In this document: positions 12,646 to 63,471 of the stretch, piece by piece
Numbering within the stretch: the stretch's first letter is position 1
Layout of the letters: every line of letters begins with the position of its first letter
Origin: Schmidtea polychroa
Lineage: Eukaryota
Reading direction: 5' to 3'
NCBI GenBank assembly: GCA_044892525.1
Contig: CM097885.1
Location: 13,518,001 to 13,582,000, forward strand
Length of the DNA stretch: 64,000 nt
Notes under the pieces: generated by a model
Told to the model about the DNA's origin: nothing
What the model saw: only the letters and a program-made list of their open reading frames with translations
The model's database searches: none
Made by a program: the position numbers and the translations under genes

Positions 12646-12969
12646 ATTAATTCCAGCTTTGAATTGATTGAAAAAGTCCAAAATAGCTTGAGTTGATTGC
12701 AATTGATATTGGAATAATTTCTGAAATTTCTTCATACCAATTGCATTATTACACAATACATCTGCAGTCATTAATTGAACTTCAGTGTGCATATCTTGTT
12801 GATGCATTGCGTCAGGCGATTGCGTCATCTTGTTCATTTGATATTCTTGATAGATTTCGTATGATTGTATTAGAAATTGCTTCCATTGCGCCACTGAGAC
12901 TCTAAAGAAATCCACTCACTTCACTTTATCTACATTGGCATTTAAAAAATTGTCAATTTGACTCTTGTC
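12646..12969 (-). mobile_element. Orphan 5' junction of the tRNA-targeting element: ORF1 N-terminus, tRNA-Arg nt 1-19 (12882-12900) and array upstream spacer
   Basis: Translates to MNKMTQSPDAMHQQDMHTEVQL..., homologous to ORF1 at 63407. Followed on + by tccattgcgccactgagactctaaagaaatcc...actcttgtc, identical to the array unit. Confidence 0.9.
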
Positions 12970-16589: not shown

Positions 16590-16977
16590 GGTGTATTTAG
16601 GCGACGACGGTTTTGTGGACCGAAGTGCCCGTTGATAGCTTCCCAGAAGCACTTGCCGAGGTGAGACATTCCTCTGCTTAACTTTGTTATCGATCTGTCC
16701 CTGACCGCTCCAGATAGGAGTTGCCTCCTTTTGGCTCTATAGGTTACCCTACAGTTTCCCTAAGCTTCCAGCCGTTCGAAAAGAATACATTTGGTTGTCA
16801 CTCTTGGAGGAGTGGGTAACAGGAGTAACCACGAGAAGGTAGTATTTCTTTTCTTTCACCTCGCGCAGAAGAGATCTTCTGCCAGGGACGCTAGCCTGCT
16901 GCACCTTGGCCATCCTTCACAGGACGGACTGATCAAGGGCATTGGAACCAGATTACCATGACCACGATTAAGAGAGT
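16193..16977 (-). mobile_element. 5' fragment of an R2 retrotransposon (copy 1; others 18422-19206, 20651-21435, 22882-23666)
   Basis: GC-rich block. Starts with ACTCTCTTAA (28S sequence directly 5' of the canonical R2 site), then an HDV-like ribozyme core, then C2H2 finger CNFCEKDFAT..GRGVHQRSAH and Myb-like RWLEEE..GRTAESIRG. Confidence 0.85.
16778..16853 (-). ncRNA. HDV-like ribozyme core of the R2 5' UTR (also 19007-19082, 21236-21311, 23467-23542)
   Basis: Minus strand: P2 GAAAAGAAATAC, P3 ACC, L3 TTCTCGT, P3' GGT, P1' TACTCCT (complementary to 28S GGGAGTA with G-U at +1), P4 GTT..CACTC/GAGTG..AAC, J4/2 CAAAT, P2' GTATTCTTTTC. Folded by eye. Confidence 0.75.
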
Positions 16978-22900: not shown

Positions 22901-24840
22901 TCTCCCCGATTCCCGCAATGACTCCACCAATGCGATGAACGCTGCCTTCTTTAGCTGTCCCCTAATGGACTCGGCTGTTCGACCCTGACCGTGAACTTGT
23001 GACAATACCTTCGGATCCCGACCATTCACCACTACTTCCCTCACTAGGATCTGAATTTCTTCCTCTAGCCACCTTCTCGTCACCACCCTTTCACCCCGCT
23101 CTTTCTCCAAAAGAGCATCTGTCTTCTCCCTGTGGGCACTCCTCTGGTGCACGCCTCTGCCAATTTTTGTAGCGAAATCCTTCTCACAAAAATTGCATTT
23201 GAACTTCTCAACTTCGGCCGTGAAATCCCGGACCGCACCATTCACCGATAAATTATTATTTATTGTGTTGATTTCCATGGTGTATTTAGGCGACGACGGT
23301 TTTGTGGACCGAAGTGCCCGTTGATAGCTTCCCAGAAGCACTTGCCGAGGTGAGACATTCCTCTGCTTAACTTTGTTATCGATCTGTCCCTGACCGCTCC
23401 AGATAGGAGTTGCCTCCTTTTGGCTCTATAGGTTACCCTACAGTTTCCCTAAGCTTCCAGCCGTTCGAAAAGAATACATTTGGTTGTCACTCTTGGAGGA
23501 GTGGGTAACAGGAGTAACCACGAGAAGGTAGTATTTCTTTTCTTTCACCTCGCGCAGAAGAGATCTTCTGCCAGGGACGCTAGCCTGCTGCACCTTGGCC
23601 ATCCTTCACAGGACGGACTGATCAAGGGCATTGGAACCAGATTACCATGACCACGATTAAGAGAGTGCAATCAAGCTTGGATGCAGGAATGGTTAACGTC
23701 GCGTGTAATGTTATGCTCACGACGACTTTAATCACTCTTGCATAATCATAAATAAATATCAAAGACAAAAAATTTGGTTATGCATCTAAAATATTGAATT
23801 TAAGAATCATACTAACAATAACAATAAATAAAAATATTGAATTGAAGAATCATAATAACAATAACATTACATCATAAACAATGATAATAATGAAACTAAT
23901 GATCAAATCCTACTTCCAATTACAAATTCTTCTGTGGACAGAGAAGAATAAAAATTTGGCACTGTTTGAATACCATTGGAAGCTTTTTTTTCCTTTTGTT
24001 TGATACATTTATAATTGTACACATTCATCTTAAAGACCTTATTTATACTAAATTGCGCACATGTTCAACCAATCAAATTTGCATAAACTAAAAAGTTCAT
24101 TAAATTAAACTTATAAACAAAATAAAATTTTATCTAATTAAATAAAATTACATAAATAAAATGTTAAGAACAATAAATGATAATCTAAAATAATTTATTA
24201 TTATCACACCACCATCTATTTTTATTATTAAGATTTGTAGAATTATTATTTGTACTATTGTTTGTATAAGTTTTATTATTAACATGGTTCTTGGCCATAA
24301 TTCTATTTAGCAACATATTTTTATTCAAAATAAACTGGTTTAGGTGTGCATAGTGTTCGGTGTAAAAAACTGAATTTTTTAATTTCTGGGCAGTTTCGCA
24401 TTTAGCGCATATAAAAAAGCGGGTGCCGTAGAATTTACGACCATAGTACTTTTCCAATTATTTATGACATGCCAAGCTATGACCAATCGTCGACTGACAG
24501 TACTTCTTATACAGTTTGCTTGATAAAATATATATATATATATAAATTATAGCATCATGTATCATCCATAATCATCTTAAATATTATCATTATATTATTA
24601 TTTAATTCATTTAAAAATTATTGATAAATGAATTAAATATTAAATTAAATTAAAAATTATTATTATTATTATTATTATTTACAAAAATATTATTATTTAA
24701 ATTAACATTCATGATTGCAGTTAGCAACCATGAATGCTAACAAAGACATCATGTGTTTAATGCGTGATCAGCGCATAAAGACAATGATTAATGACAAAGA
24801 CAGTGCATGATCAGTGCATGTCTCATAAAGAAACATAATG

Positions 24841-25689
24841 AAATTAAAATTCCTATAGAAAAAAGATTTAAAATTATCTAAACCTAAAGGATTGGCATTT
24901 AATTCCTCCCCAGATAAAAATTTATTTAATTTTAAGTATTTATTCTTTGATTCCTTAATTTTAGTTAAAGGAATCAAATTTGGAAACTTATTATAGAGCT
25001 GTTTTCGCTCTTTTTTTTAGTTAAAATACGAATATAAGTTTTAAAATCAAATATTTTATTACTTATTTTCGGTTTGGAAATAAAAACTTTAGGATTTACA
25101 GAACTTTTATTATTGTTTATTGAAATTTTAAAATTTTCGAAATTTTGACTATCGATATTAAAATCGTTATTAACATTAATATTGAGAATTTTATCACAAG
25201 TCGAATTATTAACATTACAATTATCTATATTTACAATTTCATTAGCTTTAGAATTTTTATTTAAAGAAAATTTATCAAAATTATTTAAATTATTAGAGAA
25301 ATTTTCAAAATTTAAAGATAAACATTCTAACCGTTCGAACATCTTTGAAAATAAAATCTCCATTGAATCCAAACGTTTCTCGAAATTCTGAAACTGATTG
25401 TCTGGCTTGTTTGGAAGGACATTGTTCATCGAATGATTCTCCATGGAAGTCATATTAATTCCAGCTTTGAATTGATCGAAAAAGTCCAAAATAGCTTGAG
25501 TTGATTGCAATTGATATTGGAATAATTTCTGAAATTTCTTCATACCAATTGCATTATTACACAATACATCTGCAGTCATTAATTGAACTTCAGTGTGCAT
25601 ATCTTGTTGATGCATTGCGTCAGGCGATGGCGTCATCTTGTTCATTTGATATTCTTGATAGATTTCATATGATTGCTTTAGAAATTGCT
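24841..25689 (-). mobile_element. 5' portion of tRNA-targeting element (frameshifted ORF1 N-terminus), joined to tRNA-Arg nt 1-19 (25690-25708)
   Basis: 249-aa and 69-aa ORFs homologous to ORF1; junction gaaattgct|tccattgcgccactgagac. Confidence 0.92.
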
Positions 25690-25896
25690 TCCATTGCGCC
25701 ACTGAGACTCTAAAGAAATCCACTCACTTCACTTTATCTACATTGGCATTTAAAAAATTGTCAATTTGACTCTTGTCAAGTCAAAACAAATTTCTCATGC
25801 TTTTGATATTCTTGATAGATTTCGTATGATTGCATTAGAAATTGCTTTGACGATTTTTCGTTGTTGAAAACAAAATTTTGTCAAAGACAATTCTGT

Positions 25897-25901
25897 AAAA
25901 A
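25897..25901 (-). terminator. Pol III oligo-T terminator (TTTTT) 2 nt after each tRNA
   Basis: Minus strand ...CTGAGATG CA TTTTT ACAG, repeated through the array. Confidence 0.85.
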
Positions 25902-25903
25902 TG

Positions 25904-25976
25904 CATCTCAGGTGGGACTCGAACCCACAACCTCCGGATTAGAAGTCCGACGCGCTATCCATTGCGCCACTGAGAC
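25904..25976 (-). tRNA. tRNA-Arg-TCT: tRNA-Arg(UCU), intronless, 73 nt; representative copy
   Basis: GTCTCAGTGGCGCAATGGATAGCGCGTCGGACTTCTAATCCGGAGGTTGTGGGTTCGAGTCCCACCTGAGATG. Acceptor GTCTCAG/CTGAGAT, anticodon arm TCGGA-CTTCTAA-TCCGG, A and B boxes intact. Confidence 0.97.
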
Positions 25977-28924
25977 TCTAAAGAAATCCACTCACTTCAC
26001 TTTATCTAGATTGGCATTTAAAAAATTGTCAATTTGACTCTTGTCAAGTCAAAACAAATTTCTCATGCTTTTGATATTCTTGATAGATTTCGTATGATTG
26101 CATTAGAAATTGCTTTGACGATTTTTCGTTGTTGAAAACAAAATTTTGTCAAAGACAATTCTGTAAAAATGCATCTCAGGTGGGACTCGAACCCACAACC
26201 TCCGGATTAGAAGTCCGACGCGCTATCCATTGCGCCACTGAGACTCTAAAGAAATCCACTCACTTCACTTTATCTACATTGGCATTTAAAAAATTGTCAA
26301 TTTGACTCTTGTCAAGTCAAAACAAATTTCTCATGCTTTTGATATTCTTGATAGATTTCGTATGATTGCATTAGAAATTGCTTTGACGATTTTTCGTTGT
26401 TGAAAACAAAATTTTGTCAAAGACAATTCTGTAAAAATGCATCTCAGGTGGGACTCGAACCCACAACCTCCGGATTAGAAGTCCGACGCGCTATCCATTG
26501 CGCCACTGAGACTCTAAAGAAATCCACTCACTTCACTTTATCTACATTGGCATTTAAAAAATTGTCAATTTGACTCTTGTCAAGTCAAAACAAATTTCTC
26601 ATGCTTTTGATATTCTTGATAGATTTCGTATGATTGCATTAGAAATTGCTTTGACGATTTTTCGTTGTTGAAAACAAAATTTTGTCAAAGACAATTCTGT
26701 AAAAATGCATCTCAGGTGGGACCCGAACCCACAACCTCCGGATTAGAAGTCCGACGCGCTATCCATTGCGCCACTGAGACTCTAAAGAAATCCACTCACT
26801 TCACTTTATCTACATTGGCATTTAAAAAATTGTCAATTTGACTCTTGTCAAGTCAAAACAAATTTCTCATGCTTTTGATATTCTTGATAGATTTCGTATG
26901 ATTGCATTAGAAATTGCTTTGACGATTTTTCGTTGTTGAAAACAAAATTTTGTCAAAGACAATTCTGTAAAAATGCATCTCAGGTGGGACTCGAACCCAC
27001 AACCTCCGGATTAGAAGTCCGACGCGCTATCCATTGCGCCACTGAGACTCTAAAGAAATCCACTCACTTCACTTTATCTACATTGGCATTTAAAAAATTG
27101 TCAATTTGACTCTTGTCAAGTCAAAACAAATTTCTCATGCTTTTGATATTCTTGATAGATTTCGTATGATTGCATTAGAAATTGCTTTGACGATTTTTCG
27201 TTGTTGAAAACAAAATTTTGTCAAAGACAATTCTGTAAAAATGCATCTCAGGTGGGACTCGAACCCACAACCTCCGGATTAGAAGTCCGACGCGCTATCC
27301 ATTGCGCCACTGAGACTCTAAAGAAATCCACTCACTTCACTTTATCTACATTGGCATTTAAAAAATTGTCAATTTGACTCTTGTCAAGTCAAAACAAATT
27401 TCTCATGCTTTTGATATTCTTGATAGATTTCGTATGATTGCATTAGAAATTGCTTTGACGATTTTTCGTTGTTGAAAACAAAATTTTGTCAAAGACAATT
27501 CTGTAAAAATGCATCTCAGGTGGGACTCGAACCCACAACCTCCGGATTAGAAGTCCGACGCGCTATCCATTGCGCCACTGAGACTCTAAAGAAATCCACT
27601 CACTTCACTTTATCTACATTGGCATTTAAAAAATTGTCAATTTGACTCTTGTCAAGTCAAAACAAATTTCTCATGCTTTTGATATTCTTGATAGATTTCG
27701 TATGATTGCATTAGAAATTGCTTTGACGATTTTTCGTTGTTGAAAACAAAATTTTGTCAAAGACAATTCTGTAAAAATGCATCTCAGGTGGGACTCGAAC
27801 CCACAACCTCCGGATTAGAAGTCCGACGCGCTATCCATTGCGCCACTGAGACTCTAAAGAAATCCACTCACTTCACTTTATCTACATTGGCATTTAAAAA
27901 ATTGTCAATTTGACTCTTGTCAAGTCAAAACAAATTTCTCATGCTTTTGATATTCTTGATAGATTTCGTATGATTGCATTAGAAATTGCTTTGACGATTT
28001 TTCGTTGTTGAAAACAAAATTTTGTCAAAGACAATTCTGTAAAAATGCATCTCAGGTGGGACTCGAACCCACAACCTCCGGATTAGAAGTCCGACGCGCT
28101 ATCCATTGCGCCACTGAGACTCTAAAGAAATCCACTCACTTCACTTTATCTACATTGGCATTTAAAAAATTGTCAATTTGACTCTTGTCAAGTCAAAACA
28201 AATTTCTCATGCTTTTGATATTCTTGATAGATTTCGTATGATTGCATTAGAAATTGCTTTGACGATTTTTCGTTGTTGAAAACAAAATTTTGTCAAAGAC
28301 AATTCTGTAAAAATGCATCTCAGGTGGGACTCGAACCCACAACCTCCGGATTAGAAGTCCGACGCGCTATCCATTGCGCCACTGAGACTCTAAAGAAATC
28401 CACTCACTTCACTTTATCTACATTGGCATTTAAAAAATTGTCAATTTGACTCTTGTCAAGTCAAAACAAATTTCTCATGCTTTTGATATTCTTGATAGAT
28501 TTCGTATGATTGCATTAGAAATTGCTTTGACGATTTTTCGTTGTTGAAAACAAAATTTTGTCAAAGACAATTCTGTAAAAATGCATCTCAGGTGGGACTC
28601 GAACCCACAACCTCCGGATTAGAAGTCCGACGCGCTATCCATTGCGCCACTGAGACTCTAAAGAAATCCACTCACTTCACTTTATCTACATTGGCATTTA
28701 AAAAATTGTCAATTTGACTCTTGTCAAGTCAAAACAAATTTCTCATGCTTTTGATATTCTTGATAGATTTCGTATGATTGCATTAGAAATTGCTTTGACG
28801 ATTTTTCGTTGTTGAAAACAAAATTTTGTCAAAGACAATTCTGTAAAAATGCATCTCAGGTGGGACTCGAACCCACAACCTCCGGATTAGAAGTCCGACG
28901 CGCTATCCATTGCGCCACTGAGAC
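25904..28924 (-). tRNA. tRNA-Arg-TCT: Sub-array 1: 12 complete tRNA-Arg(UCU) genes
   Basis: First 25904, last 28852; difference is 11 x 268. Confidence 0.95.
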
Positions 28925-29122
28925 TCTAAAGAAATCCACTCACTTCACTTTATCTACATTGGAATTTAAAAAATTGTCAATTTGACTCTTGTCAAGTCAA
29001 AACAAATTTCTCATGCTTTTGATATTCTTGATAGATTTCGTATGATTGCATTAGAAATTGCTTTGACGATTTTTCGTTGTTGAAAACAAAATTTTGTCAA
29101 AGACAATTCTGTAAAAATGCAT

Positions 29123-30363
29123 TACTTTTCCAATTATTTATGACATGCCAAGCTATGACCAATCGTCGACTGACAGTACTTCTTATACAGTTTGCTTGAT
29201 AAAATATATATATATATAAATTATAGCATCATGTATCATCCATAATCATCTTAAATATTATCATTATATTATTATTTAATTCATTTAAAAATTATTGATA
29301 AATGAATTAAATATTAAATTAAATTAAAAATTATTATTATTATTATTATTATTTACAAAAATATTATTATTTAAATTAACATTCATGATTGCAGTTAGCA
29401 ACCATGAATGCTAACAAAGACATCATGTGTTTAATGCGTGATCAGCGCATAAAGACAATGATTAATGACAAAGACAGTGCATGATCAGTGCATGTCTCAT
29501 AAAGAAACATAATGAAATTAAAATTCCTATAGAAAAAAGATTTAAAATTATCTAAACCTAAAGGATTGGCATTTAATTCCTCCCCAGATAAAAATTTATT
29601 TAATTTTAAGTATTTATTCTTTGATTCCTTAATTTTAGTTAAAGGAATCAAATTTGGAAACTTATTATAGAGCTGTTTTCGCTCTTTTTTTTAGTTAAAA
29701 TACGAATATAAGTTTTAAAATCAAATATTTTATTACTTATTTTCGGTTTGGAAATAAAAACTTTAGGATTTACAGAACTTTTATTATTGTTTATTGAAAT
29801 TTTAAAATTTTCGAAATTTTGACTATCGATATTAAAATCGTTATTAACATTAATATTGAGAATTTTATCACAAGTCGAATTATTAACATTACAATTATCT
29901 ATATTTACAATTTCATTAGCTTTAGAATTTTTATTTAAAGAAAATTTATCAAAATTATTTAAATTATTAGAGAAATTTTCAAAATTTAAAGATAAACATT
30001 CTAACCGTTCGAACATCTTTGAAAATAAAATCTCCATTGAATCCAAACGTTTCTCGAAATTCTGAAACTGATTGTCTGGCTTGTTTGGAAGGACATTGTT
30101 CATCGAATGATTCTCCATGGAAGTCATATTAATTCCAGCTTTGAATTGATCGAAAAAGTCCAAAATAGCTTGAGTTGATTGCAATTGATATTGGAATAAT
30201 TTCTGAAATTTCTTCATACCAATTGCATTATTACACAATACATCTGCAGTCATTAATTGAACTTCAGTGTGCATATCTTGTTGATGCATTGCGTCAGGCG
30301 ATGGCGTCATCTTGTTCATTTGATATTCTTGATAGATTTCATATGATTGCTTTAGAAATTGCT
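29123..30363 (-). mobile_element. 1.24-kb cassette (AT-rich flank, hairpin module, ORF1 5' part) replacing most of one tRNA
   Basis: Copy of ~24447-25689; left junction aaaatgcat|tacttttcc, right junction at tRNA nt 19. Confidence 0.92.
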
Positions 30364-30577
30364 TCCATTGCGCCACTGAGACTCTAAAGAAATCCACTCA
30401 CTTCACTTTATCTACATTGGCATTTAAAAAATTGTCAATTTGACTCTTGTCAAGTCAAAACAAATTTCTCATGCTTTTGATATTCTTGATAGATTTCGTA
30501 TGATTGCATTAGAAATTGCTTTGACGATTTTTCGTTGTTGAAAACAAAATTTTGTCAAAGACAATTCTGTAAAAATG

Positions 30578-33500
30578 CATCTCAGGTGGGACTCGAACCC
30601 ACAACCTCCGGATTAGAAGTCCGACGCGCTATCCATTGCGCCACTGAGACTCTAAAGAAATCCACTCACTTCACTTTATCTAGATTGGCATTTAAAAAAT
30701 TGTCAATTTGACTCTTGTCAAGTCAAAACAAATTTCTCATGCTTTTGATATTCTTGATAGATTTCGTATGATTGCATTAGAAATTGCTTTGACGATTTTT
30801 CGTTGTTGAAAACAAAATTTTGTCAAAGACAATTCTGTAAAAATGCATCTCAGGTGGGACTCGAACCCACAACCTCCGGATTAGAAGTCCGACGCGCTAT
30901 CCATTGCGCCACTGAGACTCTAAAGAAATCCACTCACTTCACTTTATCTACATTGGCATTTAAAAAATTGTCAATTTGACTCTTGTCAAGTCAAAACAAA
31001 TTTCTCATGCTTTTGATATTCTTGATAGATTTCGTATGATTGCATTAGAAATTGCTTTGACGATTTTTCGTTGTTGAAAACAAAATTTTGTCAAAGACAA
31101 TTCTGTAAAAATGCATCTCAGGTGGGACTCGAACCCACAACCTCCGGATTAGAAGTCCGACGCGCTATCCATTGCGCCACTGAGACTCTAAAGAAATCCA
31201 CTCACTTCACTTTATCTACATTGGCATTTAAAAAATTGTCAATTTGACTCTTGTCAAGTCAAAACAAATTTCTCATGCTTTTGATATTCTTGATAGATTT
31301 CGTATGATTGCATTAGAAATTGCTTTGACGATTTTTCGTTGTTGAAAACAAAATTTTGTCAAAGACAATTCTGTAAAAATGCATCTCAGGTGGGACTCGA
31401 ACCCACAACCTCCGGATTAGAAGTCCGACGCGCTATCCATTGCGCCACTGAGACTCTAAAGAAATCCACTCACTTCACTTTATCTACATTGGCATTTAAA
31501 AAATTGTCAATTTGACTCTTGTCAAGTCAAAACAAATTTCTCATGCTTTTGATATTCTTGATAGATTTCGTATGATTGCATTAGAAATTGCTTTGACGAT
31601 TTTTCGTTGTTGAAAACAAAATTTTGTCAAAGACAATTCTGTAAAAATGCATCTCAGGTGGGACTCGAACCCACAACCTCCGGATTAGAAGTCCGACGCG
31701 CTATCCATTGCGCCACTGAGACTCTAAAGAAATCCACTCACTTCACTTTATCTACATTGGCATTTAAAAAATTGTCAATTTGACTCTTGTCAAGTCAAAA
31801 CAAATTTCTCATGCTTTTGATATTCTTGATAGATTTCGTATGATTGCATTAGAAATTGCTTTGACGATTTTTCGTTGTTGAAAACAAAATTTTGTCAAAG
31901 ACAATTCTGTAAAAATGCATCTCAGGTGGGACTCGAACCCACAACCTCCGGATTAGAAGTCCGACGCGCTATCCATTGCGCCACTGAGACTCTAAAGAAA
32001 TCCACTCACTTCACTTTATCTACATTGGCATTTAAAAAATTGTCAATTTGACTCTTGTCAAGTCAAAACAAATTTCTCATGCTTTTGATATTCTTGATAG
32101 ATTTCGTATGATTGCATTAGAAATTGCTTTGACGATTTTTCGTTGTTGAAAACAAAATTTTGTCAAAGACAATTCTGTAAAAATGCATCTCAGGTGGGAC
32201 TCGAACCCACAACCTCCGGATTAGAAGTCCGACGCGCTATCCATTGCGCCACTGAGACTCTAAAGAAATCCACTCACTTCACTTTATCTACATTGGCATT
32301 TAAAAAATTGTCAATTTGACTCTTGTCAAGTCAAAACAAATTTCTCATGCTTTTGATATTCTTGATAGATTTCGTATGATTGCATTAGAAATTGCTTTGA
32401 CGATTTTTCGTTGTTGAAAACAAAATTTTGTCAAAGACAATTCTGTAAAAATGCATCTCAGGTGGGACTCGAACCCACAACCTCCGGATTAGAAGTCCGA
32501 CGCGCTATCCATTGCGCCACTGAGACTCTAAAGAAATCCACTCACTTCACTTTATCTACATTGGCATTTAAAAAATTGTCAATTTGACTCTTGTCAAGTC
32601 AAAACAAATTTCTCATGCTTTTGATATTCTTGATAGATTTCGTATGATTGCATTAGAAATTGCTTTGACGATTTTTCGTTGTTGAAAACAAAATTTTGTC
32701 AAAGACAATTCTGTAAAAATGCATCTCAGGTGGGACTCGAACCCACAACCTCCGGATTAGAAGTCCGACGCGCTATCCATTGCGCCACTGAGACTCTAAA
32801 GAAATCCACTCACTTCACTTTATCTACATTGGCATTTAAAAAATTGTCAATTTGACTCTTGTCAAGTCAAAACAAATTTCTCATGCTTTTGATATTCTTG
32901 ATAGATTTCGTATGATTGCATTAGAAATTGCTTTGACGATTTTTCGTTGTTGAAAACAAAATTTTGTCAAAGACAATTCTGTAAAAATGCATCTCAGGTG
33001 GGACTCGAACCCACAACCTCCGGATTAGAAGTCCGACGCGCTATCCATTGCGCCACTGAGACTCTAAAGAAATCCACTCACTTCACTTTATCTACATTGG
33101 CATTTAAAAAATTGTCAATTTGACTCTTGTCAAGTCAAAACAAATTTCTCATGCTTTTGATATTCTTGATAGATTTCGTATGATTGCATTAGAAATTGCT
33201 TTGACGATTTTTCGTTGTTGAAAACAAAATTTTGTCAAAGACAATTCTGTAAAAATGCATCTCAGGTGGGACTCGAACCCACAACCTCCGGATTAGAAGT
33301 CCGACGCGCTATCCATTGCGCCACTGAGACTCTAAAGAAATCCACTCACTTCACTTTATCTACATTGGCATTTAAAAAATTGTCAATTTGACTCTTGTCA
33401 AGTCAAAACAAATTTCTCATGCTTTTGATATTCTTGATAGATTTCGTATGATTGCATTAGAAATTGCTTTGACGATTTTTCGTTGTTGAAAACAAAATTT

Positions 33501-36500
33501 TGTCAAAGACAATTCTGTAAAAATGCATCTCAGGTGGGACTCGAACCCACAACCTCCGGATTAGAAGTCCGACGCGCTATCCATTGCGCCACTGAGACTC
33601 TAAAGAAATCCACTCACTTCACTTTATCTACATTGGCATTTAAAAAATTGTCAATTTGACTCTTGTCAAGTCAAAACAAATTTCTCATGCTTTTGATATT
33701 CTTGATAGATTTCGTATGATTGCATTAGAAATTGCTTTGACGATTTTTCGTTGTTGAAAACAAAATTTTGTCAAAGACAATTCTGTAAAAATGCATCTCA
33801 GGTGGGACTCGAACCCACAACCTCCGGATTAGAAGTCCGACGCGCTATCCATTGCGCCACTGAGACTCTAAAGAAATCCACTCACTTCACTTTATCTACA
33901 TTGGCATTTAAAAAATTGTCAATTTGACTCTTGTCAAGTCAAAACAAATTTCTCATGCTTTTGATATTCTTGATAGATTTCGTATGATTGCATTAGAAAT
34001 TGCTTTGACGATTTTTCGTTGTTGAAAACAAAATTTTGTCAAAGACAATTCTGTAAAAATGCATCTCAGGTGGGACTCGAACCCACAACCTCCGGATTAG
34101 AAGTCCGACGCGCTATCCATTGCGCCACTGAGACTCTAAAGAAATCCACTCACTTCACTTTATCTACATTGGCATTTAAAAAATTGTCAATTTGACTCTT
34201 GTCAAGTCAAAACAAATTTCTCATGCTTTTGATATTCTTGATAGATTTCGTATGATTGCATTAGAAATTGCTTTGACGATTTTTCGTTGTTGAAAACAAA
34301 ATTTTGTCAAAGACAATTCTGTAAAAATGCATCTCAGGTGGGACTCGAACCCACAACCTCCGGATTAGAAGTCCGACGCGCTATCCATTGCGCCACTGAG
34401 ACTCTAAAGAAATCCACTCACTTCACTTTATCTACATTGGCATTTAAAAAATTGTCAATTTGACTCTTGTCAAGTCAAAACAAATTTCTCATGCTTTTGA
34501 TATTCTTGATAGATTTCGTATGATTGCATTAGAAATTGCTTTGACGATTTTTCGTTGTTGAAAACAAAATTTTGTCAAAGACAATTCTGTAAAAATGCAT
34601 CTCAGGTGGGACTCGAACCCACAACCTCCGGATTAGAAGTCCGACGCGCTATCCATTGCGCCACTGAGACTCTAAAGAAATCCACTCACTTCACTTTATC
34701 TACATTGGCATTTAAAAAATTGTCAATTTGACTCTTGTCAAGTCAAAACAAATTTCTCATGCTTTTGATATTCTTGATAGATTTCGTATGATTGCATTAG
34801 AAATTGCTTTGACGATTTTTCGTTGTTGAAAACAAAATTTTGTCAAAGACAATTCTGTAAAAATGCATCTCAGGTGGGACTCGAACCCACAACCTCCGGA
34901 TTAGAAGTCCGACGCGCTATCCATTGCGCCACTGAGACTCTAAAGAAATCCACTCACTTCACTTTATCTAGATTGGCATTTAAAAAATTGTCAATTTGAC
35001 TCTTGTCAAGTCAAAACAAATTTCTCATGCTTTTGATATTCTTGATAGATTTCGTATGATTGCATTAGAAATTGCTTTGACGATTTTTCGTTGTTGAAAA
35101 CAAAATTTTGTCAAAGACAATTCTGTAAAAATGCATCTCAGGTGGGACTCGAACCCACAACCGCCGGATTAGAAGTCCGACGCGCTATCCATTGCGCCAC
35201 TGAGACTCTAAAGAAATCCACTCACTTCACTTTATCTACATTGGCATTTAAAAAATTGTCAATTTGACTCTTGTCAAGTCAAAACAAATTTCTCATGCTT
35301 TTGATATTCTTGATAGATTTCGTATGATTGCATTAGAAATTGCTTTGACGATTTTTCGTTGTTGAAAACAAAATTTTGTCAAAGACAATTCTGTAAAAAT
35401 GCATCTCAGGTGGGACTCGAACCCACAACCTCCGGATTAGAAGTCCGACGCGCTATCCATTGCGCCACTGAGACTCTAAAGAAATCCACTCACTTCACTT
35501 TATCTACATTGGCATTTAAAAAATTGTCAATTTGACTCTTGTCAAGTCAAAACAAATTTCTCATGCTTTTGATATTCTTGATAGATTTCGTATGATTGCA
35601 TTAGAAATTGCTTTGACGATTTTTCGTTGTTGAAAACAAAATTTTGTCAAAGACAATTCTGTAAAAATGCATCTCAGGTGGGACTCGAACCCACAACCTC
35701 CGGATTAGAAGTCCGACGCGCTATCCATTGCGCCACTGAGACTCTAAAGAAATCCACTCACTTCACTTTATCTACATTGGCATTTAAAAAATTGTCAATT
35801 TGACTCTTGTCAAGTCAAAACAAATTTCTCATGCTTTTGATATTCTTGATAGATTTCGTATGATTGCATTAGAAATTGCTTTGACGATTTTTCGTTGTTG
35901 AAAACAAAATTTTGTCAAAGACAATTCTGTAAAAATGCATCTCAGGTGGGACTCGAACCCACAACCTCCGGATTAGAAGTCCGACGCGCTATCCATTGCG
36001 CCACTGAGACTCTAAAGAAATCCACTCACTTCACTTTATCTACATTGGCATTTAAAAAATTGTCAATTTGACTCTTGTCAAGTCAAAACAAATTTCTCAT
36101 GCTTTTGATATTCTTGATAGATTTCGTATGATTGCATTAGAAATTGCTTTGACGATTTTTCGTTGTTGAAAACAAAATTTTGTCAAAGACAATTCTGTAA
36201 AAATGCATCTCAGGTGGGACTCGAACCCACAACCTCCGGATTAGAAGTCCGACGCGCTATCCATTGCGCCACTGAGACTCTAAAGAAATCCACTCACTTC
36301 ACTTTATCTACATTGGCATTTAAAAAATTGTCAATTTGACTCTTGTCAAGTCAAAACAAATTTCTCATGCTTTTGATATTCTTGATAGATTTCGTATGAT
36401 TGCATTAGAAATTGCTTTGACGATTTTTCGTTGTTGAAAACAAAATTTTGTCAAAGACAATTCTGTAAAAATGCATCTCAGGTGGGACTCGAACCCACAA

Positions 36501-39500
36501 CCTCCGGATTAGAAGTCCGACGCGCTATCCATTGCGCCACTGAGACTCTAAAGAAATCCACTCACTTCACTTTATCTACATTGGCATTTAAAAAATTGTC
36601 AATTTGACTCTTGTCAAGTCAAAACAAATTTCTCATGCTTTTGATATTCTTGATAGATTTCGTATGATTGCATTAGAAATTGCTTTGACGATTTTTCGTT
36701 GTTGAAAACAAAATTTTGTCAAAGACAATTCTGTAAAAATGCATCTCAGGTGGGACTCGAACCCACAACCTCCGGATTAGAAGTCCGACGCGCTATCCAT
36801 TGCGCCACTGAGACTCTAAAGAAATCCACTCACTTCACTTTATCTACATTGGCATTTAAAAAATTGTCAATTTGACTCTTGTCAAGTCAAAACAAATTTC
36901 TCATGCTTTTGATATTCTTGATAGATTTCGTATGATTGCATTAGAAATTGCTTTGACGATTTTTCGTTGTTGAAAACAAAATTTTGTCAAAGACAATTCT
37001 GTAAAAATGCATCTCAGGTGGGACTCGAACCCACAACCTCCGGATTAGAAGTCCGACGCGCTATCCATTGCGCCACTGAGACTCTAAAGAAATCCACTCA
37101 CTTCACTTTATCTACATTGGCATTTAAAAAATTGTCAATTTGACTCTTGTCAAGTCAAAACAAATTTCTCATGCTTTTGATATTCTTGATAGATTTCGTA
37201 TGATTGCATTAGAAATTGCTTTGACGATTTTTCGTTGTTGAAAACAAAATTTTGTCAAAGACAATTCTGTAAAAATGCATCTCAGGTGGGACTCGAACCC
37301 ACAACCTCCGGATTAGAAGTCCGACGCGCTATCCATTGCGCCACTGAGACTCTAAAGAAATCCACTCACTTCACTTTATCTACATTGGCATTTAAAAAAT
37401 TGTCAATTTGACTCTTGTCAAGTCAAAACAAATTTCTCATGCTTTTGATATTCTTGATAGATTTCGTATGATTGCATTAGAAATTGCTTTGACGATTTTT
37501 CGTTGTTGAAAACAAAATTTTGTCAAAGACAATTCTGTAAAAATGCATCTCAGGTGGGACTCGAACCCACAACCTCCGGATTAGAAGTCCGACGCGCTAT
37601 CCATTGCGCCACTGAGACTCTAAAGAAATCCACTCACTTCACTTTATCTACATTGGCATTTAAAAAATTGTCAATTTGACTCTTGTCAAGTCAAAACAAA
37701 TTTCTCATGCTTTTGATATTCTTGATAGATTTCGTATGATTGCATTAGAAATTGCTTTGACGATTTTTCGTTGTTGAAAACAAAATTTTGTCAAAGACAA
37801 TTCTGTAAAAATGCATCTCAGGTGGGACTCGAACCCACAACCTCCGGATTAGAAGTCCGACGCGCTATCCATTGCGCCACTGAGACTCTAAAGAAATCCA
37901 CTCACTTCACTTTATCTACATTGGCATTTAAAAAATTGTCAATTTGACTCTTGTCAAGTCAAAACAAATTTCTCATGCTTTTGATATTCTTGATAGATTT
38001 CGTATGATTGCATTAGAAATTGCTTTGACGATTTTTCGTTGTTGAAAACAAAATTTTGTCAAAGACAATTCTGTAAAAATGCATCTCAGGTGGGACTCGA
38101 ACCCACAACCTCCGGATTAGAAGTCCGACGCGCTATCCATTGCGCCACTGAGACTCTAAAGAAATCCACTCACTTCACTTTATCTACATTGGCATTTAAA
38201 AAATTGTCAATTTGACTCTTGTCAAGTCAAAACAAATTTCTCATGCTTTTGATATTCTTGATAGATTTCGTATGATTGCATTAGAAATTGCTTTGACGAT
38301 TTTTCGTTGTTGAAAACAAAATTTTGTCAAAGACAATTCTGTAAAAATGCATCTCAGGTGGGACTCGAACCCACAACCTCCGGATTAGAAGTCCGACGCG
38401 CTATCCATTGCGCCACTGAGACTCTAAAGAAATCCACTCACTTCACTTTATCTACATTGGCATTTAAAAAATTGTCAATTTGACTCTTGTCAAGTCAAAA
38501 CAAATTTCTCATGCTTTTGATATTCTTGATAGATTTCGTATGATTGCATTAGAAATTGCTTTGACGATTTTTCGTTGTTGAAAACAAAATTTTGTCAAAG
38601 ACAATTCTGTAAAAATGCATCTCAGGTGGGACTCGAACCCACAACCTCCGGATTAGAAGTCCGACGCGCTATCCATTGCGCCACTGAGACTCTAAAGAAA
38701 TCCACTCACTTCACTTTATCTACATTGGCATTTAAAAAATTGTCAATTTGACTCTTGTCAAGTCAAAACAAATTTCTCATGCTTTTGATATTCTTGATAG
38801 ATTTCGTATGATTGCATTAGAAATTGCTTTGACGATTTTTCGTTGTTGAAAACAAAATTTTGTCAAAGACAATTCTGTAAAAATGCATCTCAGGTGGGAC
38901 TCGAACCCACAACCTCCGGATTAGAAGTCCGACGCGCTATCCATTGCGCCACTGAGACTCTAAAGAAATCCACTCACTTCACTTTATCTACATTGGCATT
39001 TAAAAAATTGTCAATTTGACTCTTGTCAAGTCAAAACAAATTTCTCATGCTTTTGATATTCTTGATAGATTTCGTATGATTGCATTAGAAATTGCTTTGA
39101 CGATTTTTCGTTGTTGAAAACAAAATTTTGTCAAAGACAATTCTGTAAAAATGCATCTCAGGTGGGACTCGAACCCACAACCTCCGGATTAGAAGTCCGA
39201 CGCGCTATCCATTGCGCCACTGAGACTCTAAAGAAATCCACTCACTTCACTTTATCTACATTGGCATTTAAAAAATTGTCAATTTGACTCTTGTCAAGTC
39301 AAAACAAATTTCTCATGCTTTTGATATTCTTGATAGATTTCGTATGATTGCATTAGAAATTGCTTTGACGATTTTTCGTTGTTGAAAACAAAATTTTGTC
39401 AAAGACAATTCTGTAAAAATGCATCTCAGGTGGGACTCGAACCCACAACCTCCGGATTAGAAGTCCGACGCGCTATCCATTGCGCCACTGAGACTCTAAA

Positions 39501-42500
39501 GAAATCCACTCACTTCACTTTATCTACATTGGCATTTAAAAAATTGTCAATTTGACTCTTGTCAAGTCAAAACAAATTTCTCATGCTTTTGATATTCTTG
39601 ATAGATTTCGTATGATTGCATTAGAAATTGCTTTGACGATTTTTCGTTGTTGAAAACAAAATTTTGTCAAAGACAATTCTGTAAAAATGCATCTCAGGTG
39701 GGACTCGAACCCACAACCTCCGGATTAGAAGTCCGACGCGCTATCCATTGCGCCACTGAGACTCTAAAGAAATCCACTCACTTCACTTTATCTACATTGG
39801 CATTTAAAAAATTGTCAATTTGACTCTTGTCAAGTCAAAACAAATTTCTCATGCTTTTGATATTCTTGATAGATTTCGTATGATTGCATTAGAAATTGCT
39901 TTGACGATTTTTCGTTGTTGAAAACAAAATTTTGTCAAAGACAATTCTGTAAAAATGCATCTCAGGTGGGACTCGAACCCACAACCTCCGGATTAGAAGT
40001 CCGACGCGCTATCCATTGCGCCACTGAGACTCTAAAGAAATCCACTCACTTCACTTTATCTACATTGGCATTTAAAAAATTGTCAATTTGACTCTTGTCA
40101 AGTCAAAACAAATTTCTCATGCTTTTGATATTCTTGATAGATTTCGTATGATTGCATTAGAAATTGCTTTGACGATTTTTCGTTGTTGAAAACAAAATTT
40201 TGTCAAAGACAATTCTGTAAAAATGCATCTCAGGTGGGACTCGAACCCACAACCTCCGGATTAGAAGTCCGACGCGCTATCCATTGCGCCACTGAGACTC
40301 TAAAGAAATCCACTCACTTCACTTTATCTACATTGGCATTTAAAAAATTGTCAATTTGACTCTTGTCAAGTCAAAACAAATTTCTCATGCTTTTGATATT
40401 CTTGATAGATTTCGTATGATTGCATTAGAAATTGCTTTGACGATTTTTCGTTGTTGAAAACAAAATTTTGTCAAAGACAATTCTGTAAAAATGCATCTCA
40501 GGTGGGACTCGAACCCACAACCTCCGGATTAGAAGTCCGACGCGCTATCCATTGCGCCACTGAGACTCTAAAGAAATCCACTCACTTCACTTTATCTACA
40601 TTGGCATTTAAAAAATTGTCAATTTGACTCTTGTCAAGTCAAAACAAATTTCTCATGCTTTTGATATTCTTGATAGATTTCGTATGATTGCATTAGAAAT
40701 TGCTTTGACGATTTTTCGTTGTTGAAAACAAAATTTTGTCAAAGACAATTCTGTAAAAATGCATCTCAGGTGGGACTCGAACCCACAACCTCCGGATTAG
40801 AAGTCCGACGCGCTATCCATTGCGCCACTGAGACTCTAAAGAAATCCACTCACTTCACTTTATCTACATTGGCATTTAAAAAATTGTCAATTTGACTCTT
40901 GTCAAGTCAAAACAAATTTCTCATGCTTTTGATATTCTTGATAGATTTCGTATGATTGCATTAGAAATTGCTTTGACGATTTTTCGTTGTTGAAAACAAA
41001 ATTTTGTCAAAGACAATTCTGTAAAAATGCATCTCAGGTGGGACTCGAACCCACAACCTCCGGATTAGAAGTCCGACGCGCTATCCATTGCGCCACTGAG
41101 ACTCTAAAGAAATCCACTCACTTCACTTTATCTACATTGGCATTTAAAAAATTGTCAATTTGACTCTTGTCAAGTCAAAACAAATTTCTCATGCTTTTGA
41201 TATTCTTGATAGATTTCGTATGATTGCATTAGAAATTGCTTTGACGATTTTTCGTTGTTGAAAACAAAATTTTGTCAAAGACAATTCTGTAAAAATGCAT
41301 CTCAGGTGGGACTCGAACCCACAACCTCCGGATTAGAAGTCCGACGCGCTATCCATTGCGCCACTGAGACTCTAAAGAAATCCACTCACTTCACTTTATC
41401 TACATTGGCATTTAAAAAATTGTCAATTTGACTCTTGTCAAGTCAAAACAAATTTCTCATGCTTTTGATATTCTTGATAGATTTCGTATGATTGCATTAG
41501 AAATTGCTTTGACGATTTTTCGTTGTTGAAAACAAAATTTTGTCAAAGACAATTCTGTAAAAATGCATCTCAGGTGGGACTCGAACCCACAACCTCCGGA
41601 TTAGAAGTCCGACGCGCTATCCATTGCGCCACTGAGACTCTAAAGAAATCCACTCACTTCACTTTATCTACATTGGCATTTAAAAAATTGTCAATTTGAC
41701 TCTTGTCAAGTCAAAACAAATTTCTCATGCTTTTGATATTCTTGATAGATTTCGTATGATTGCATTAGAAATTGCTTTGACGATTTTTCGTTGTTGAAAA
41801 CAAAATTTTGTCAAAGACAATTCTGTAAAAATGCATCTCAGGTGGGACTCGAACCCACAACCTCCGGATTAGAAGTCCGACGCGCTATCCATTGCGCCAC
41901 TGAGACTCTAAAGAAATCCACTCACTTCACTTTATCTACATTGGCATTTAAAAAATTGTCAATTTGACTCTTGTCAAGTCAAAACAAATTTCTCATGCTT
42001 TTGATATTCTTGATAGATTTCGTATGATTGCATTAGAAATTGCTTTGACGATTTTTCGTTGTTGAAAACAAAATTTTGTCAAAGACAATTCTGTAAAAAT
42101 GCATCTCAGGTGGGACTCGAACCCACAACCTCCGGATTAGAAGTCCGACGCGCTATCCATTGCGCCACTGAGACTCTAAAGAAATCCACTCACTTCACTT
42201 TATCTACATTGGCATTTAAAAAATTGTCAATTTGACTCTTGTCAAGTCAAAACAAATTTCTCATGCTTTTGATATTCTTGATAGATTTCGTATGATTGCA
42301 TTAGAAATTGCTTTGACGATTTTTCGTTGTTGAAAACAAAATTTTGTCAAAGACAATTCTGTAAAAATGCATCTCAGGTGGGACTCGAACCCACAACCTC
42401 CGGATTAGAAGTCCGACGCGCTATCCATTGCGCCACTGAGACTCTAAAGAAATCCACTCACTTCACTTTATCTACATTGGCATTTAAAAAATTGTCAATT

Positions 42501-44854
42501 TGACTCTTGTCAAGTCAAAACAAATTTCTCATGCTTTTGATATTCTTGATAGATTTCGTATGATTGCATTAGAAATTGCTTTGACGATTTTTCGTTGTTG
42601 AAAACAAAATTTTGTCAAAGACAATTCTGTAAAAATGTATCTCAGGTGGGACTCGAACCCACAACCTCCGGATTAGAAGTCCGACGCGCTATCCATTGCG
42701 CCACTGAGACTCTAAAGAAATCCACTCATTTCACTTTATCTACATTGGCATTTAAAAAATTGTCAATTTGACTCTTGTCAAGTCAAAACAAATTTCTCAT
42801 GCTTTTGATATTCTTGATAGATTTCGTATGATTGCATTAGAAATTGCTTTGACGATTTTTCGTTGTTGAAAACAAAATTTTGTCAAAGACAATTCTGTAA
42901 AAATGCATCTCAGGTGGGACTCGAACCCACAACCTCCGGATTAGAAGTCCGACGCGCTATCCATTGCGCCACTGAGACTCTAAAGAAATCCACTCACTTC
43001 ACTTTATCTACATTGGCATTTAAAAAATTGTCAATTTGACTCTTGTCAAGTCAAAACAAATTTCTCATGCTTTTGATATTCTTGATAGATTTCGTATGAT
43101 TGCATTAGAAATTGCTTTGACGATTTTTCGTTGTTGAAAACAAAATTTTGTCAAAGACAATTCTGTAAAAATGCATCTCAGGTGGGACTCGAACCCACAA
43201 CCTCCGGATTAGAAGTCCGACGCGCTATCCATTGCGCCACTGAGACTCTAAAGAAATCCACTCACTTCACTTTATCTACATTGGCATTTAAAAAATTGTC
43301 AATTTGACTCTTGTCAAGTCAAAACAAATTTCTCATGCTTTTGATATTCTTGATAGATTTCGTATGATTGCATTAGAAATTGCTTTGACGATTTTTCGTT
43401 GTTGAAAACAAAATTTTGTCAAAGACAATTCTGTAAAAATGCATCTCAGGTGGGACTCGAACCCACAACCTCCGGATTAGAAGTCCGACGCGCTATCCAT
43501 TGCGCCACTGAGACTCTAAAGAAATCCACTCACTTCACTTTATCTACATTGGCATTTAAAAAATTGTCAATTTGACTCTTGTCAAGTCAAAACAAATTTC
43601 TCATGCTTTTGATATTCTTGATAGATTTCGTATGATTGCATTAGAAATTGCTTTGACGATTTTTCGTTGTTGAAAACAAAATTTTGTCAAAGACAATTCT
43701 GTAAAAATGCATCTCAGGTGGGACTCGAACCCACAACCTCCGGATTAGAAGTCCGACGCGCTATCCATTGCGCCACTGAGACTCTAAAGAAATCCACTCA
43801 CTTCACTTTATCTACATTGGCATTTAAAAAATTGTCAATTTGACTCTTGTCAAGTCAAAACAAATTTCTCATGCTTTTGATATTCTTGATAGATTTCGTA
43901 TGATTGCATTAGAAATTGCTTTGACGATTTTTCGTTGTTGAAAACAAAATTTTGTCAAAGACAATTCTGTAAAAATGCATCTCAGGTGGGACTCGAACCC
44001 ACAACCTCCGGATTAGAAGTCCGACGCGCTATCCATTGCGCCACTGAGACTCTAAAGAAATCCACTCACTTCACTTTATCTACATTGGCATTTAAAAAAT
44101 TGTCAATTTGACTCTTGTCAAGTCAAAACAAATTTCTCATGCTTTTGATATTCTTGATAGATTTCGTATGATTGCATTAGAAATTGCTTTGACGATTTTT
44201 CGTTGTTGAAAACAAAATTTTGTCAAAGACAATTCTGTAAAAATGCATCTCAGGTGGGACTCGAACCCACAACCTCCGGATTAGAAGTCCGACGCGCTAT
44301 CCATTGCGCCACTGAGACTCTAAAGAAATCCACTCACTTCACTTTATCTACATTGGCATTTAAAAAATTGTCAATTTGACTCTTGTCAAGTCAAAACAAA
44401 TTTCTCATGCTTTTGATATTCTTGATAGATTTCGTATGATTGCATTAGAAATTGCTTTGACGATTTTTCGTTGTTGAAAACAAAATTTTGTCAAAGACAA
44501 TTCTGTAAAAATGCATCTCAGGTGGGACTCGAACCCACAACCTCCGGATTAGAAGTCCGACGCGCTATCCATTGCGCCACTGAGACTCTAAAGAAATCCA
44601 CTCACTTCACTTTATCTACATTGGCATTTAAAAAATTGTCAATTTGACTCTTGTCAAGTCAAAACAAATTTCTCATGCTTTTGATATTCTTGATAGATTT
44701 CGTATGATTGCATTAGAAATTGCTTTGACGATTTTTCGTTGTTGAAAACAAAATTTTGTCAAAGACAATTCTGTAAAAATGCATCTCAGGTGGGACTCGA
44801 ACCCACAACCTCCGGATTAGAAGTCCGACGCGCTATCCATTGCGCCACTGAGAC
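30578..44854 (-). tRNA. tRNA-Arg-TCT: Sub-array 2: 54 complete tRNA-Arg(UCU) genes
   Basis: First 30578, last 44782; difference is 53 x 268. Confidence 0.95.
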
Positions 44855-45052
44855 TCTAAAGAAATCCACTCACTTCACTTTATCTACATTGGAATTTAAA
44901 AAATTGTCAATTTGACTCTTGTCAAGTCAAAACAAATTTCTCATGCTTTTGATATTCTTGATAGATTTCGTATGATTGCATTAGAAATTGCTTTGACGAT
45001 TTTTCGTTGTTGAAAACAAAATTTTGTCAAAGACAATTCTGTAAAAATGCAT

Positions 45053-46293
45053 TACTTTTCCAATTATTTATGACATGCCAAGCTATGACCAATCGTCGAC
45101 TGACAGTACTTCTTATACAGTTTGCTTGATAAAATATATATATATATAAATTATAGCATCATGTATCATCCATAATCATCTTAAATATTATCATTATATT
45201 ATTATTTAATTCATTTAAAAATTATTGATAAATGAATTAAATATTAAATTAAATTAAAAATTATTATTATTATTATTATTATTTACAAAAATATTATTAT
45301 TTAAATTAACATTCATGATTGCAGTTAGCAACCATGAATGCTAACAAAGACATCATGTGTTTAATGCGTGATCAGCGCATAAAGACAATGATTAATGACA
45401 AAGACAGTGCATGATCAGTGCATGTCTCATAAAGAAACATAATGAAATTAAAATTCCTATAGAAAAAAGATTTAAAATTATCTAAACCTAAAGGATTGGC
45501 ATTTAATTCCTCCCCAGATAAAAATTTATTTAATTTTAAGTATTTATTCTTTGATTCCTTAATTTTAGTTAAAGGAATCAAATTTGGAAACTTATTATAG
45601 AGCTGTTTTCGCTCTTTTTTTTAGTTAAAATACGAATATAAGTTTTAAAATCAAATATTTTATTACTTATTTTCGGTTTGGAAATAAAAACTTTAGGATT
45701 TACAGAACTTTTATTATTGTTTATTGAAATTTTAAAATTTTCGAAATTTTGACTATCGATATTAAAATCGTTATTAACATTAATATTGAGAATTTTATCA
45801 CAAGTCGAATTATTAACATTACAATTATCTATATTTACAATTTCATTAGCTTTAGAATTTTTATTTAAAGAAAATTTATCAAAATTATTTAAATTATTAG
45901 AGAAATTTTCAAAATTTAAAGATAAACATTCTAACCGTTCGAACATCTTTGAAAATAAAATCTCCATTGAATCCAAACGTTTCTCGAAATTCTGAAACTG
46001 ATTGTCTGGCTTGTTTGGAAGGACATTGTTCATCGAATGATTCTCCATGGAAGTCATATTAATTCCAGCTTTGAATTGATCGAAAAAGTCCAAAATAGCT
46101 TGAGTTGATTGCAATTGATATTGGAATAATTTCTGAAATTTCTTCATACCAATTGCATTATTACACAATACATCTGCAGTCATTAATTGAACTTCAGTGT
46201 GCATATCTTGTTGATGCATTGCGTCAGGCGATGGCGTCATCTTGTTCATTTGATATTCTTGATAGATTTCATATGATTGCTTTAGAAATTGCT
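45053..46293 (-). mobile_element. Second copy of the 1.24-kb cassette
   Basis: Same junctions and ORFs as 29123-30363 (offset 15930). Confidence 0.92.
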
Positions 46294-46507
46294 TCCATTG
46301 CGCCACTGAGACTCTAAAGAAATCCACTCACTTCACTTTATCTAGATTGGCATTTAAAAAATTGTCAATTTGACTCTTGTCAAGTCAAAACAAATTTCTC
46401 ATGCTTTTGATATTCTTGATAGATTTCGTATGATTGCATTAGAAATTGCTTTGACGATTTTTCGTTGTTGAAAACAAAATTTTGTCAAAGACAATTCTGT
46501 AAAAATG

Positions 46508-55500: not shown

Positions 55501-55692
55501 AACAAATTTCTCATGCTTTTGATATTCTTGATAGATTTCGTATGATTGCATTAGAAATTGCTTTGACGATTTTTCGTTGTTGAAAACAAAATTTTGTCAA
55601 AGACAATTCTGTAAAAATGCATCTCAGGTGGGACTCGAACCCACAACCTCCGGATTAGAAGTCCGACGCGCTATCCATTGCGCCACTGAGAC
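46508..55692 (-). tRNA. tRNA-Arg-TCT: Sub-array 3: 35 complete tRNA-Arg(UCU) genes
   Basis: First 46508, last 55620; difference is 34 x 268. Confidence 0.95.
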
Positions 55693-55887
55693 TCTAAAGA
55701 AATCCACTCACTTCACTTTATCTACATTGGCATTTAAAAAATTGTCAATTTGACTCTTGTCAAGTCAAAACAAATTTCTCATGCTTTTGATATTCTTGAT
55801 AGATTTCGTATGATTGCATTAGAAATTGCTTTGACGATTTTTCGTTGTTGAAAACAAAATTTTGTCAAAGACAATTCTGTAAAAATG

Positions 55888-55941
55888 CATCTCAGGTGGG
55901 ACTCGAACCCACAACCTCCGGATTAGAAGTCCGACGCGCTA
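55888..55941 (-). pseudogene. 3' part (nt 20-73) of the interrupted tRNA-Arg
   Basis: Array sequence stops at ...ccgacgcgcta|ataaaacattt. Confidence 0.95.
55903..55941. repeat. 39-bp target duplication, left copy (right copy 63414-63452)
   Basis: tcgaacccacaacctccggattagaagtccgacgcgcta on both sides of the element. Confidence 0.92.
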
Positions 55942-56288
55942 ATAAAACATTTATTAAATATAACAAATTTGAATATTGTTTTTAACAGATAATCAGCTCT
56001 ACATGGAGTTGTCCATAAGCAAATATTCACATATTTCTTCATCTGCTGGAATCTCTGATCAATTTCATCGGAATTTATTATCCGGCATTGCGACTTGTCT
56101 TTGGTAGATTGAAGTTCTAAATTAATAAATTTGCTCTGTCGCAGAATATTTATCTCCAAAAAATGAAAGTTTCTCTAATAATTAGTTTATTTTTTTAATG
56201 AAATATAAATTTAGTTTGTTTAAATAATCAAATTAATAAAAGTTTTAAATTTAATTATTTATTTAAGTTGAAAACCAATTTATTTTAA

Positions 56289-63407: not shown

Positions 63408-63413
63408 CTTGTT

Positions 63414-63471
63414 TCGAACCCACAACCTCCGGATTAGAAGTCCGACGCGCTATCCATTGCGCCACTGAGAC
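63414..63471 (-). pseudogene. 5' part (nt 1-58) of the interrupted tRNA-Arg
   Basis: Minus strand GTCTCAG...GGGTTCGA|AACAAGATGATG. Confidence 0.95.

Follow-up and report, generated by a model that had tools for sequence, protein, structure and literature searches.

Among the closest described systems, LIN15_SM and LIN25_SM belong to the R5/LIN lineage of the NeSL clade, and in the available part of the paper that describes them neither has leaders taken from spacer, long duplications or any transduction (Kojima and Jurka, 2015, PMC4640811). R2 RNA keeps upstream 28S sequence and its uniform 5′ junctions form by annealing, with occasional inherited duplications of upstream or downstream 28S, mostly of 13–28 nt, recorded in the junction data (Eickbush et al., 2013, PMC3774820). 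For R9 of Adineta vaga, a 126-bp stagger in 28S is cited in PMC6895275. How site-specific LINEs that lack a ribozyme are transcribed, and how they complete the 5′ joint, is still an open question. In SVA and L1, 5′ transduction from upstream promoters is known. No published account of LIN-element leaders was found in the literature covered, which did not extend to Repbase reports and subscription journals.

The window analysed here is a 64,000-nt stretch of the Schmidtea polychroa genome (assembly GCA_044892525.1, contig CM097885.1, positions 13,518,001 to 13,582,000), numbered from its first letter; every feature given below as a start..end range lies on its reverse (−) strand. A tandem tRNA-Arg(TCT) array with a 268-bp unit (102 genes in the window, and 101 intact genes in 25690..55941) is interrupted by two cassettes. 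Its tRNA gene is identical to a planarian one in S6 Fig of PMC4640811, and the trailers of the two diverge after ~14 nt.

A young, near-full-length non-LTR retrotransposon of 7.5 kb lies at 55942..63413. Its ORF1 (60891..63407, from the first remaining ATG to a single TGA) matches no Pfam family. ORF2 (56289..60890) continues in frame past the TGA and encodes an Ulp1-like protease (Peptidase_C48, E 1.5e-09, plus a match to an Ulp1 structure), as in NeSL and Utopia-1_TSP, and a reverse transcriptase of the RLE non-LTR type (Pfam RVT_1, E 1.8e-29) for which R2 proteins are the closest relatives of solved structure (E 6.7e-53). A C-terminal CCHC knuckle and a restriction-like endonuclease motif were read by eye and have no profile match. 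The TGA that splits the single frame (window 60891–60893, context AAA TGA AGA TGT) is a candidate for readthrough: 29 of 35 full-length copies have it at codon 838, and the remaining six are frameshifted ahead of that codon.

This family and LIN15_SM occupy nearly the same D-arm position in tRNA-Arg genes, including the identical tRNA-Arg(TCT), and the one 5′ junction listed for LIN15_SM duplicates ~40 nt of tRNA much as the window copy does (PMC4640811). In contrast, the 3′ end and the sequence behind the 5′ junction differ from those given for LIN15_SM, and the window family uses at least seven kinds of tRNA. On the evidence of its ends it is a relative and not LIN15_SM itself.

At the 5′ end of the full-length copy, tRNA nt 1–58 adjoins AACAAGATG at 63414/63413, and the 3′ side picks up at tRNA nt 20/21. 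Because tRNA nt 21–58 is present on both sides (5′ copy 63414..63451, 3′ copy 55903..55940), it is a 38-bp target-site duplication. The sibling frame opens ATG ACT AAC G(G/A)A GAA AAC AAG ATG, and the window copy starts 14 nt inside it, without ATG ACT AAC G(G/A)A GA; genome-wide, the ACTAAC segment is present in 82/94 copies and the ATG ahead of it is kept in 80/94. In the same array, a copy 5′-truncated at element position 1950 joins at tRNA nt 59–63 and another full copy joins at tRNA nt 39. The truncated copy is an ordinary one, and its junction is of the same kind as that of the full-length copy. The original prediction had read this junction as a tRNA-derived leader: tRNA does adjoin the element, but nt 21–58 are duplicated target beside a slightly truncated copy. 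It had also placed the start of element-specific sequence at the first codon or two, which holds insofar as host sequence adjoins the ATG, but not for the full-length copy, which lacks its siblings' first 14 nt.

The second type of junction carries a 46-nt piece of the array spacer. Perfect copies of this piece number 106 in the window, for example at 25802–25847; it corresponds to positions 130–175 of the 268-bp unit, 56–101 nt past the tRNA 3′ end. At four window junctions the order is tRNA nt 1–19, spacer nt 130–175, then TG AAC AAG, the last base of the 46-mer doubling as the A of ATG AAC AAG ATG, a start found in the divergent subfamily only. In one of them, tRNA nt 1–19 (25690..25708) shares one A with the 46-mer (25645..25690, 2 mismatches) and ends 1–2 nt short of the family insertion point at nt 20/21. 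Behind it lies the relic 5′ part of a divergent-subfamily copy (24840..25644, ~0.85 kb, 86–90% identical to the young element, 3′ part lost). Junctions with 2 mismatches recur in the duplicated cassettes at 30319..30364 (relic 29514–30318) and 46249..46294 (relic 45444–46248). The fourth, at 12837..12882 with 1 mismatch, belongs to a shortened, rearranged duplicate (relic 12646–12836) in which unit 200 through tRNA nt 19 occupies 12882–12969. The 1–2 mismatches at all four sites bear out the spacer-type junctions as first described. Of 46 positions, 44 are identical to the array unit, and since the best of 300 shuffles reached 27/46, the match to the spacer is not due to chance.

All seven occurrences of the junction string in the genome lie within 88 kb (C1:13.53–13.62 Mb). 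The seven copies differ mutually at 0–2 of 181 nt and from the young element at 19–21. The six longer copies all end on the 3′ side at one breakpoint, near element position 894, followed by one common foreign flank; the private changes of the six also mark the seventh, a shortened duplicate. One copy outside the window carries the 46-mer without a mismatch, so the mismatches arose later. These seven copies almost certainly stem from one event. The 46-mer is, on this comparison, the scar of one old divergent-subfamily insertion that was multiplied by DNA duplication, and not a recurring leader. The window junctions had been taken to show how a leader is built; the spacer type instead reduces to one event present seven times, not a set of independent ones, and the tRNA type to a target duplication.

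Four repeats of a 2.23-kb unit occupy window positions 15920–23425, each with element positions 623–894; within the unit this segment falls inside an open frame of 221 aa, whose weak match to Myb stays below the Pfam cut-off.

A genome-wide search with a 21-nt pattern gave 94 sites, and all 94 junctions were read. Small contigs may repeat chromosomal arrays, so the following are counts of copies and not of events. Thirty-three copies join directly to Asn-array spacer at unit 199 and 32 to Met-array spacer at unit 208–210; the Arg 46-mer accounts for 7. Asn spacer is also borne by 12 copies (8 events) outside the Asn array, and a shortened Asn form by 2 divergent copies at the edge of that array. 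Two copies in the His array bear 13 nt of Met spacer, 1 dispersed fragment bears 55 nt of Ile spacer, and at 5 ends the leader is absent or at most 8 nt long. No element-specific 5′ UTR, whether long and unique or of any other kind, was found among the 94 ends, as originally predicted, and the 25 junction strings that represent all 94 pattern sites have no non-host sequence in common upstream of the ATG. Twenty extra loci located by their 3′ ends added four Met-type junctions and a full-length copy whose lead-in is short and rich in A, and no long UTR. The family thus has no front end of its own: host spacer adjoins the start codon. The broader prediction therefore holds at family level, though on grounds other than those first offered.

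The 56 3′ ends that were read lie in the D-arm of Asn, Met, iMet, Arg, His, Cys and Ile genes, plus one tRNA-like motif; the family inserts its 3′ end before A21–G22 of many tRNA genes. An intact tRNA gene stands within 300 nt upstream in 66/94 copies. A high-copy repeat with several tRNA-like A/B-box motifs is also targeted (L141, L143 and L162–L172; 486 candidates), and similar targets in Polintons are shown in S6 Fig of PMC4640811. Unit 204–215 of the Met array (L002, L015) contains the 12 nt AAAATGAACAAG, identical to the start of the divergent subfamily, by chance or through an old capture.

The 5′ side joins at variable host positions, often on short microhomologies. Duplications in the family measure 19, 38, 39–43, 107 and 149 bp, and many sites have none. 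Thirteen loci with a non-array 5′ flank were compared over 400 by 700 nt: two have long duplications, one has a captured piece, and ten, two of them mutual duplicates, have no duplication in that span. The two duplications, of 149 bp (149/149) in L145 (C1:267.06 Mb) and 107 bp (98%) in L152 (C3:91.2 Mb), sit at tRNA-like motifs inside other repeats; 5′ joining can thus extend far downstream. In L141, the 5′ junction contains 156 nt that match DNA of the same locus 551–687 nt downstream, with 1 mismatch and a 19-nt difference in AT-repeat length; a paralogue matches this piece at 98% as well. The L141 piece is the closest parallel to the 46-mer. Jumps and microhomology at the junctions agree with the earlier proposal that 5′ joining uses template jumps or annealing.

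Within arrays, junctions 126–235 nt past the nick can be read either as a duplication or as a deletion into the previous unit. The host segments 5′ and 3′ of the element carry different alleles in most Met copies; His, Ile and Cys each show one such differing site. The comparison gives no support to the idea that every array copy has its own long duplication. Met allele 102T, found in 13/36 element-adjacent units vs. 6/169 whole units, rides with elements and was therefore spread by descent.

For the 46-mer itself, the reading we put first is a local double template jump. The reverse transcriptase would run off the element RNA, jump to target DNA ~155 nt downstream of the nick, copy 46 nt and then rejoin at the nick. 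The left break lies 1–2 nt from the nick and the 46-mer is collinear with the unit; both points, the downstream DNA captured in L141 and the 149- and 107-bp duplications argue for such a jump, to which we give about an even chance, as the sequence alone does not separate it from an RNA-borne leader or a later deletion. Precedents are the R2 junctions that repeat pieces of upstream or downstream 28S (PMC3774820) and the 126-bp stagger of R9 (PMC6895275). An RNA-borne origin is possible although doubtful: a lost Arg copy with its 5′ junction at unit 175 would have been transcribed from about unit 130 and its RNA re-inserted at a tRNA-Arg nick without annealing, much as in R2 junctions that duplicate upstream 28S. 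The length of 46–47 nt fits the long class of transduced leaders described below (46 and 50 nt of Asn, 55 nt of Ile; 55–58 nt), and in R2 the length of a duplication can record the RNA 5′ end, according to the junction data of PMC3774820. Yet neither the 94 sites nor the 7 junction matches include a source copy whose spacer runs on unbroken to unit 175, no other catalogued array junction lies at the nick itself, and re-insertion into the same array is required. We regard as unlikely a third course, in which the element joined at unit 175, its endonuclease re-cut the regenerated tRNA and repair removed nt 20–129. Collinear pieces, a left break at the nick, the heavy rearrangement of the relic and the 66/94 copies with an intact tRNA within 300 nt upstream all suit it, but none of the seven copies is an undeleted sister and no such deletion stands ahead of the 65 Asn and Met junctions.

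Recurring leaders are found elsewhere, in the copies that carry spacer of another array. Asn spacer precedes the ATG in copies of the Met, iMet, Cys and Ile arrays, with lengths of 50, 46, 23, 21, 21, 19, 19 and 18 nt in the eight events. Six of the eight leaders begin 18–23 nt upstream, a 6-nt window (p 0.002–0.006 against uniform lengths up to 50–60), which suggests that the RNA begins ~20 nt upstream of the ATG. When the first 400 nt are compared, no difference separates Asn-array copies from three iMet copies or from the Met copy with 46 nt of Asn spacer, nor Met-array copies from the two His copies that bear a Met leader. A donor flank was found for the 8 Asn events and 1 Met event, with alleles that match in most but not all. 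The foreign leaders are thus probably the product of RNA-borne transduction, a reading drawn from junction sequences and from a small number of events. The Ile leader of 55 nt is weak evidence because it sits on a rearranged, duplicated fragment without a 3′ end.

Some copies are discordant: the 5′ haplotype is of Met type in the iMet copy with 23 nt of Asn spacer and of Asn type in two copies with a Met junction, and the 50-nt Asn junction occurs on two haplotypes. A tree of 35 full copies is mosaic, so whole-element trees were uninformative as tracers of lineage. Such mosaicism, together with a spacer allele 106 nt upstream that hitchhikes in the Met array, is what ectopic gene conversion would leave if it had shifted the leaders between copies without an RNA intermediate. 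We find this improbable, since the copies with foreign leaders are whole insertions with exact 3′ ends at another tRNA's nick, and conversion would not halt six times inside 6 nt. The Met junction itself lies on a 7-nt match between the element head and the Met unit, the longest such match (tied with one other), and may therefore recur.

The tight cluster of leader starts also speaks for a different reading, not exclusive of the others, in which the ~20-nt leader is the element's ancestral UTR, deposited in the Asn spacer by an old insertion and homogenised via the Asn array. The leader is common to the young and divergent subfamilies, an 8-nt direct repeat flanks the ~20-nt stretch in the Asn spacer, and the only LIN15_SM 5′ end in S6 Fig of PMC4640811 starts with a similar 8 nt. 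Against this, two events reach 46 and 50 nt of continuous spacer, all 157 of the 157 complete Asn units read contain the stretch, leaving no unit without it, and Met and Ile spacers fill the same role in other copies. The chance that it is correct seems small. An ancient piece of UTR within the spacer had been offered earlier as an alternative for the Arg junctions; the Arg 46-mer does not fit it, and it survives as an outside chance for the 20-nt Asn stretch.

Under RNA-borne transduction, source copies in the Asn array would be transcribed from a start ~20, sometimes ~50, nt upstream of the ATG, within the spacer. Transcription would probably be by Pol II, given an AATAAA near the 3′ end and T runs in the element. 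An RNA that starts inside host spacer would make that spacer a borrowed 5′ UTR and carry it to new arrays, and unequal crossover and conversion would afterwards multiply and shuffle the junctions. Initiator and downstream-promoter motifs near the leader starts, sought by eye, were too weak to claim. Contigs of run X1, whose RNA origin is a guess, cover 28/30 bins of an Asn-array copy and not the leader bin; as contigs cannot show a transcript start, this coverage supports no inference. Spliced-leader trans-splicing was rejected because leaders vary by array and the spacer is contiguous in 65 copies; the available part of PMC2770079 yielded no planarian spliced-leader sequence, and the judgement rests on junction anatomy.

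The original prediction favoured co-transcription from the array, or processing right at the ATG; in this model transcription would come from the tRNA gene and both window junctions would be functional leaders. Host sequence does adjoin the ATG, and in the full-length copy tRNA nt 1–58 together with AACA looks like an entire A and B box by the usual consensus. Nevertheless, T runs at unit 74–79 terminate every tRNA and 20 runs of at least five T lie within the element, which makes Pol III co-transcription unlikely; no foreign leader holds tRNA sequence or passes 58 nt; and tRNA nt 21–58 in the full-length copy is duplicated target. As for processing, a comparison of 4 junction loci with Rfam gave no ribozyme at any E up to 1, and no stable fold or hairpin was found at the 5′ end in 5/5 junction stretches (z-scores +0.2 to −1.6); nothing resembling a ribozyme was thus found near the ATG, although a fold of an unknown kind may be present. 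We consider this model very unlikely.

Overall, a local jump that left the 46-mer as a scar, combined with borrowed and transduced spacer leaders elsewhere, is the explanation we favour, by a modest degree. A more far-reaching version is tentative and, to us, rather doubtful: a LINE without any 5′ UTR, whose ORF1-internal promoter would start transcription ~20 nt upstream, in any host DNA that happens to precede it, and whose leader would thereby tag the source array. Joins 100–230 nt past the nick would then rebuild an intact tRNA gene and terminator ahead of the element, so that insertion would do almost no damage and the target would be renewed.

The borrowed leader is a variation on behaviour already known from R2, R9 and LIN elements. 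Like R2, the family would have target-derived sequence at the RNA 5′ end, deduced here from DNA junctions; Pol I co-transcription and an HDV-like ribozyme in a real 5′ UTR are described for R2 (PMC3774820), whereas here there is no UTR, no ribozyme was found and leaders probably move between host arrays. R9 is a restriction-like endonuclease element, as the window family appears to be, and has a target duplication above 100 bp, but one length is cited for it (PMC6895275) and the window family has varied lengths and many sites without duplication. With variable duplications that reach 149 bp, the family would stand beside R9 as a second case of far-reaching 5′ joining, and such joins would explain how intact tRNA genes stand upstream of an element that cuts inside them. 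As in SVA and L1, the 5′ host flank marks the source copy; in those elements, which have a head of their own, such a flank is added only occasionally, whereas here it is apparently the sole leader. Each leader would act as a natural barcode that identifies the source array, and together they predict where the RNA starts with an accuracy of a few bases.

Several arrangements of copies were noted in passing. In L066 (C1:13638533-13639461), an element 5′ fragment stands directly behind another copy's 3′ fragment, without a leader. In L028, L039 and L092, elements lie head to tail, and the only sequence between them runs from tRNA nt 21 to the junction point; either re-insertion at a regenerated target or unequal crossover would give this arrangement. 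The Met array at C2:87.77–88.16 Mb (L081–L093, L155–L160) is dense in elements and changes strand several times, and two of its inversion points coincide with element 5′ ends; the inverted Met spacer at these two ends was left out as evidence for jumps. Finally, another element has its 3′ terminus at ~nt 5 of tRNA-His in L026 (~830) and L075; LIN25_SM occupies the same position in tRNA-Glu (PMC4640811).
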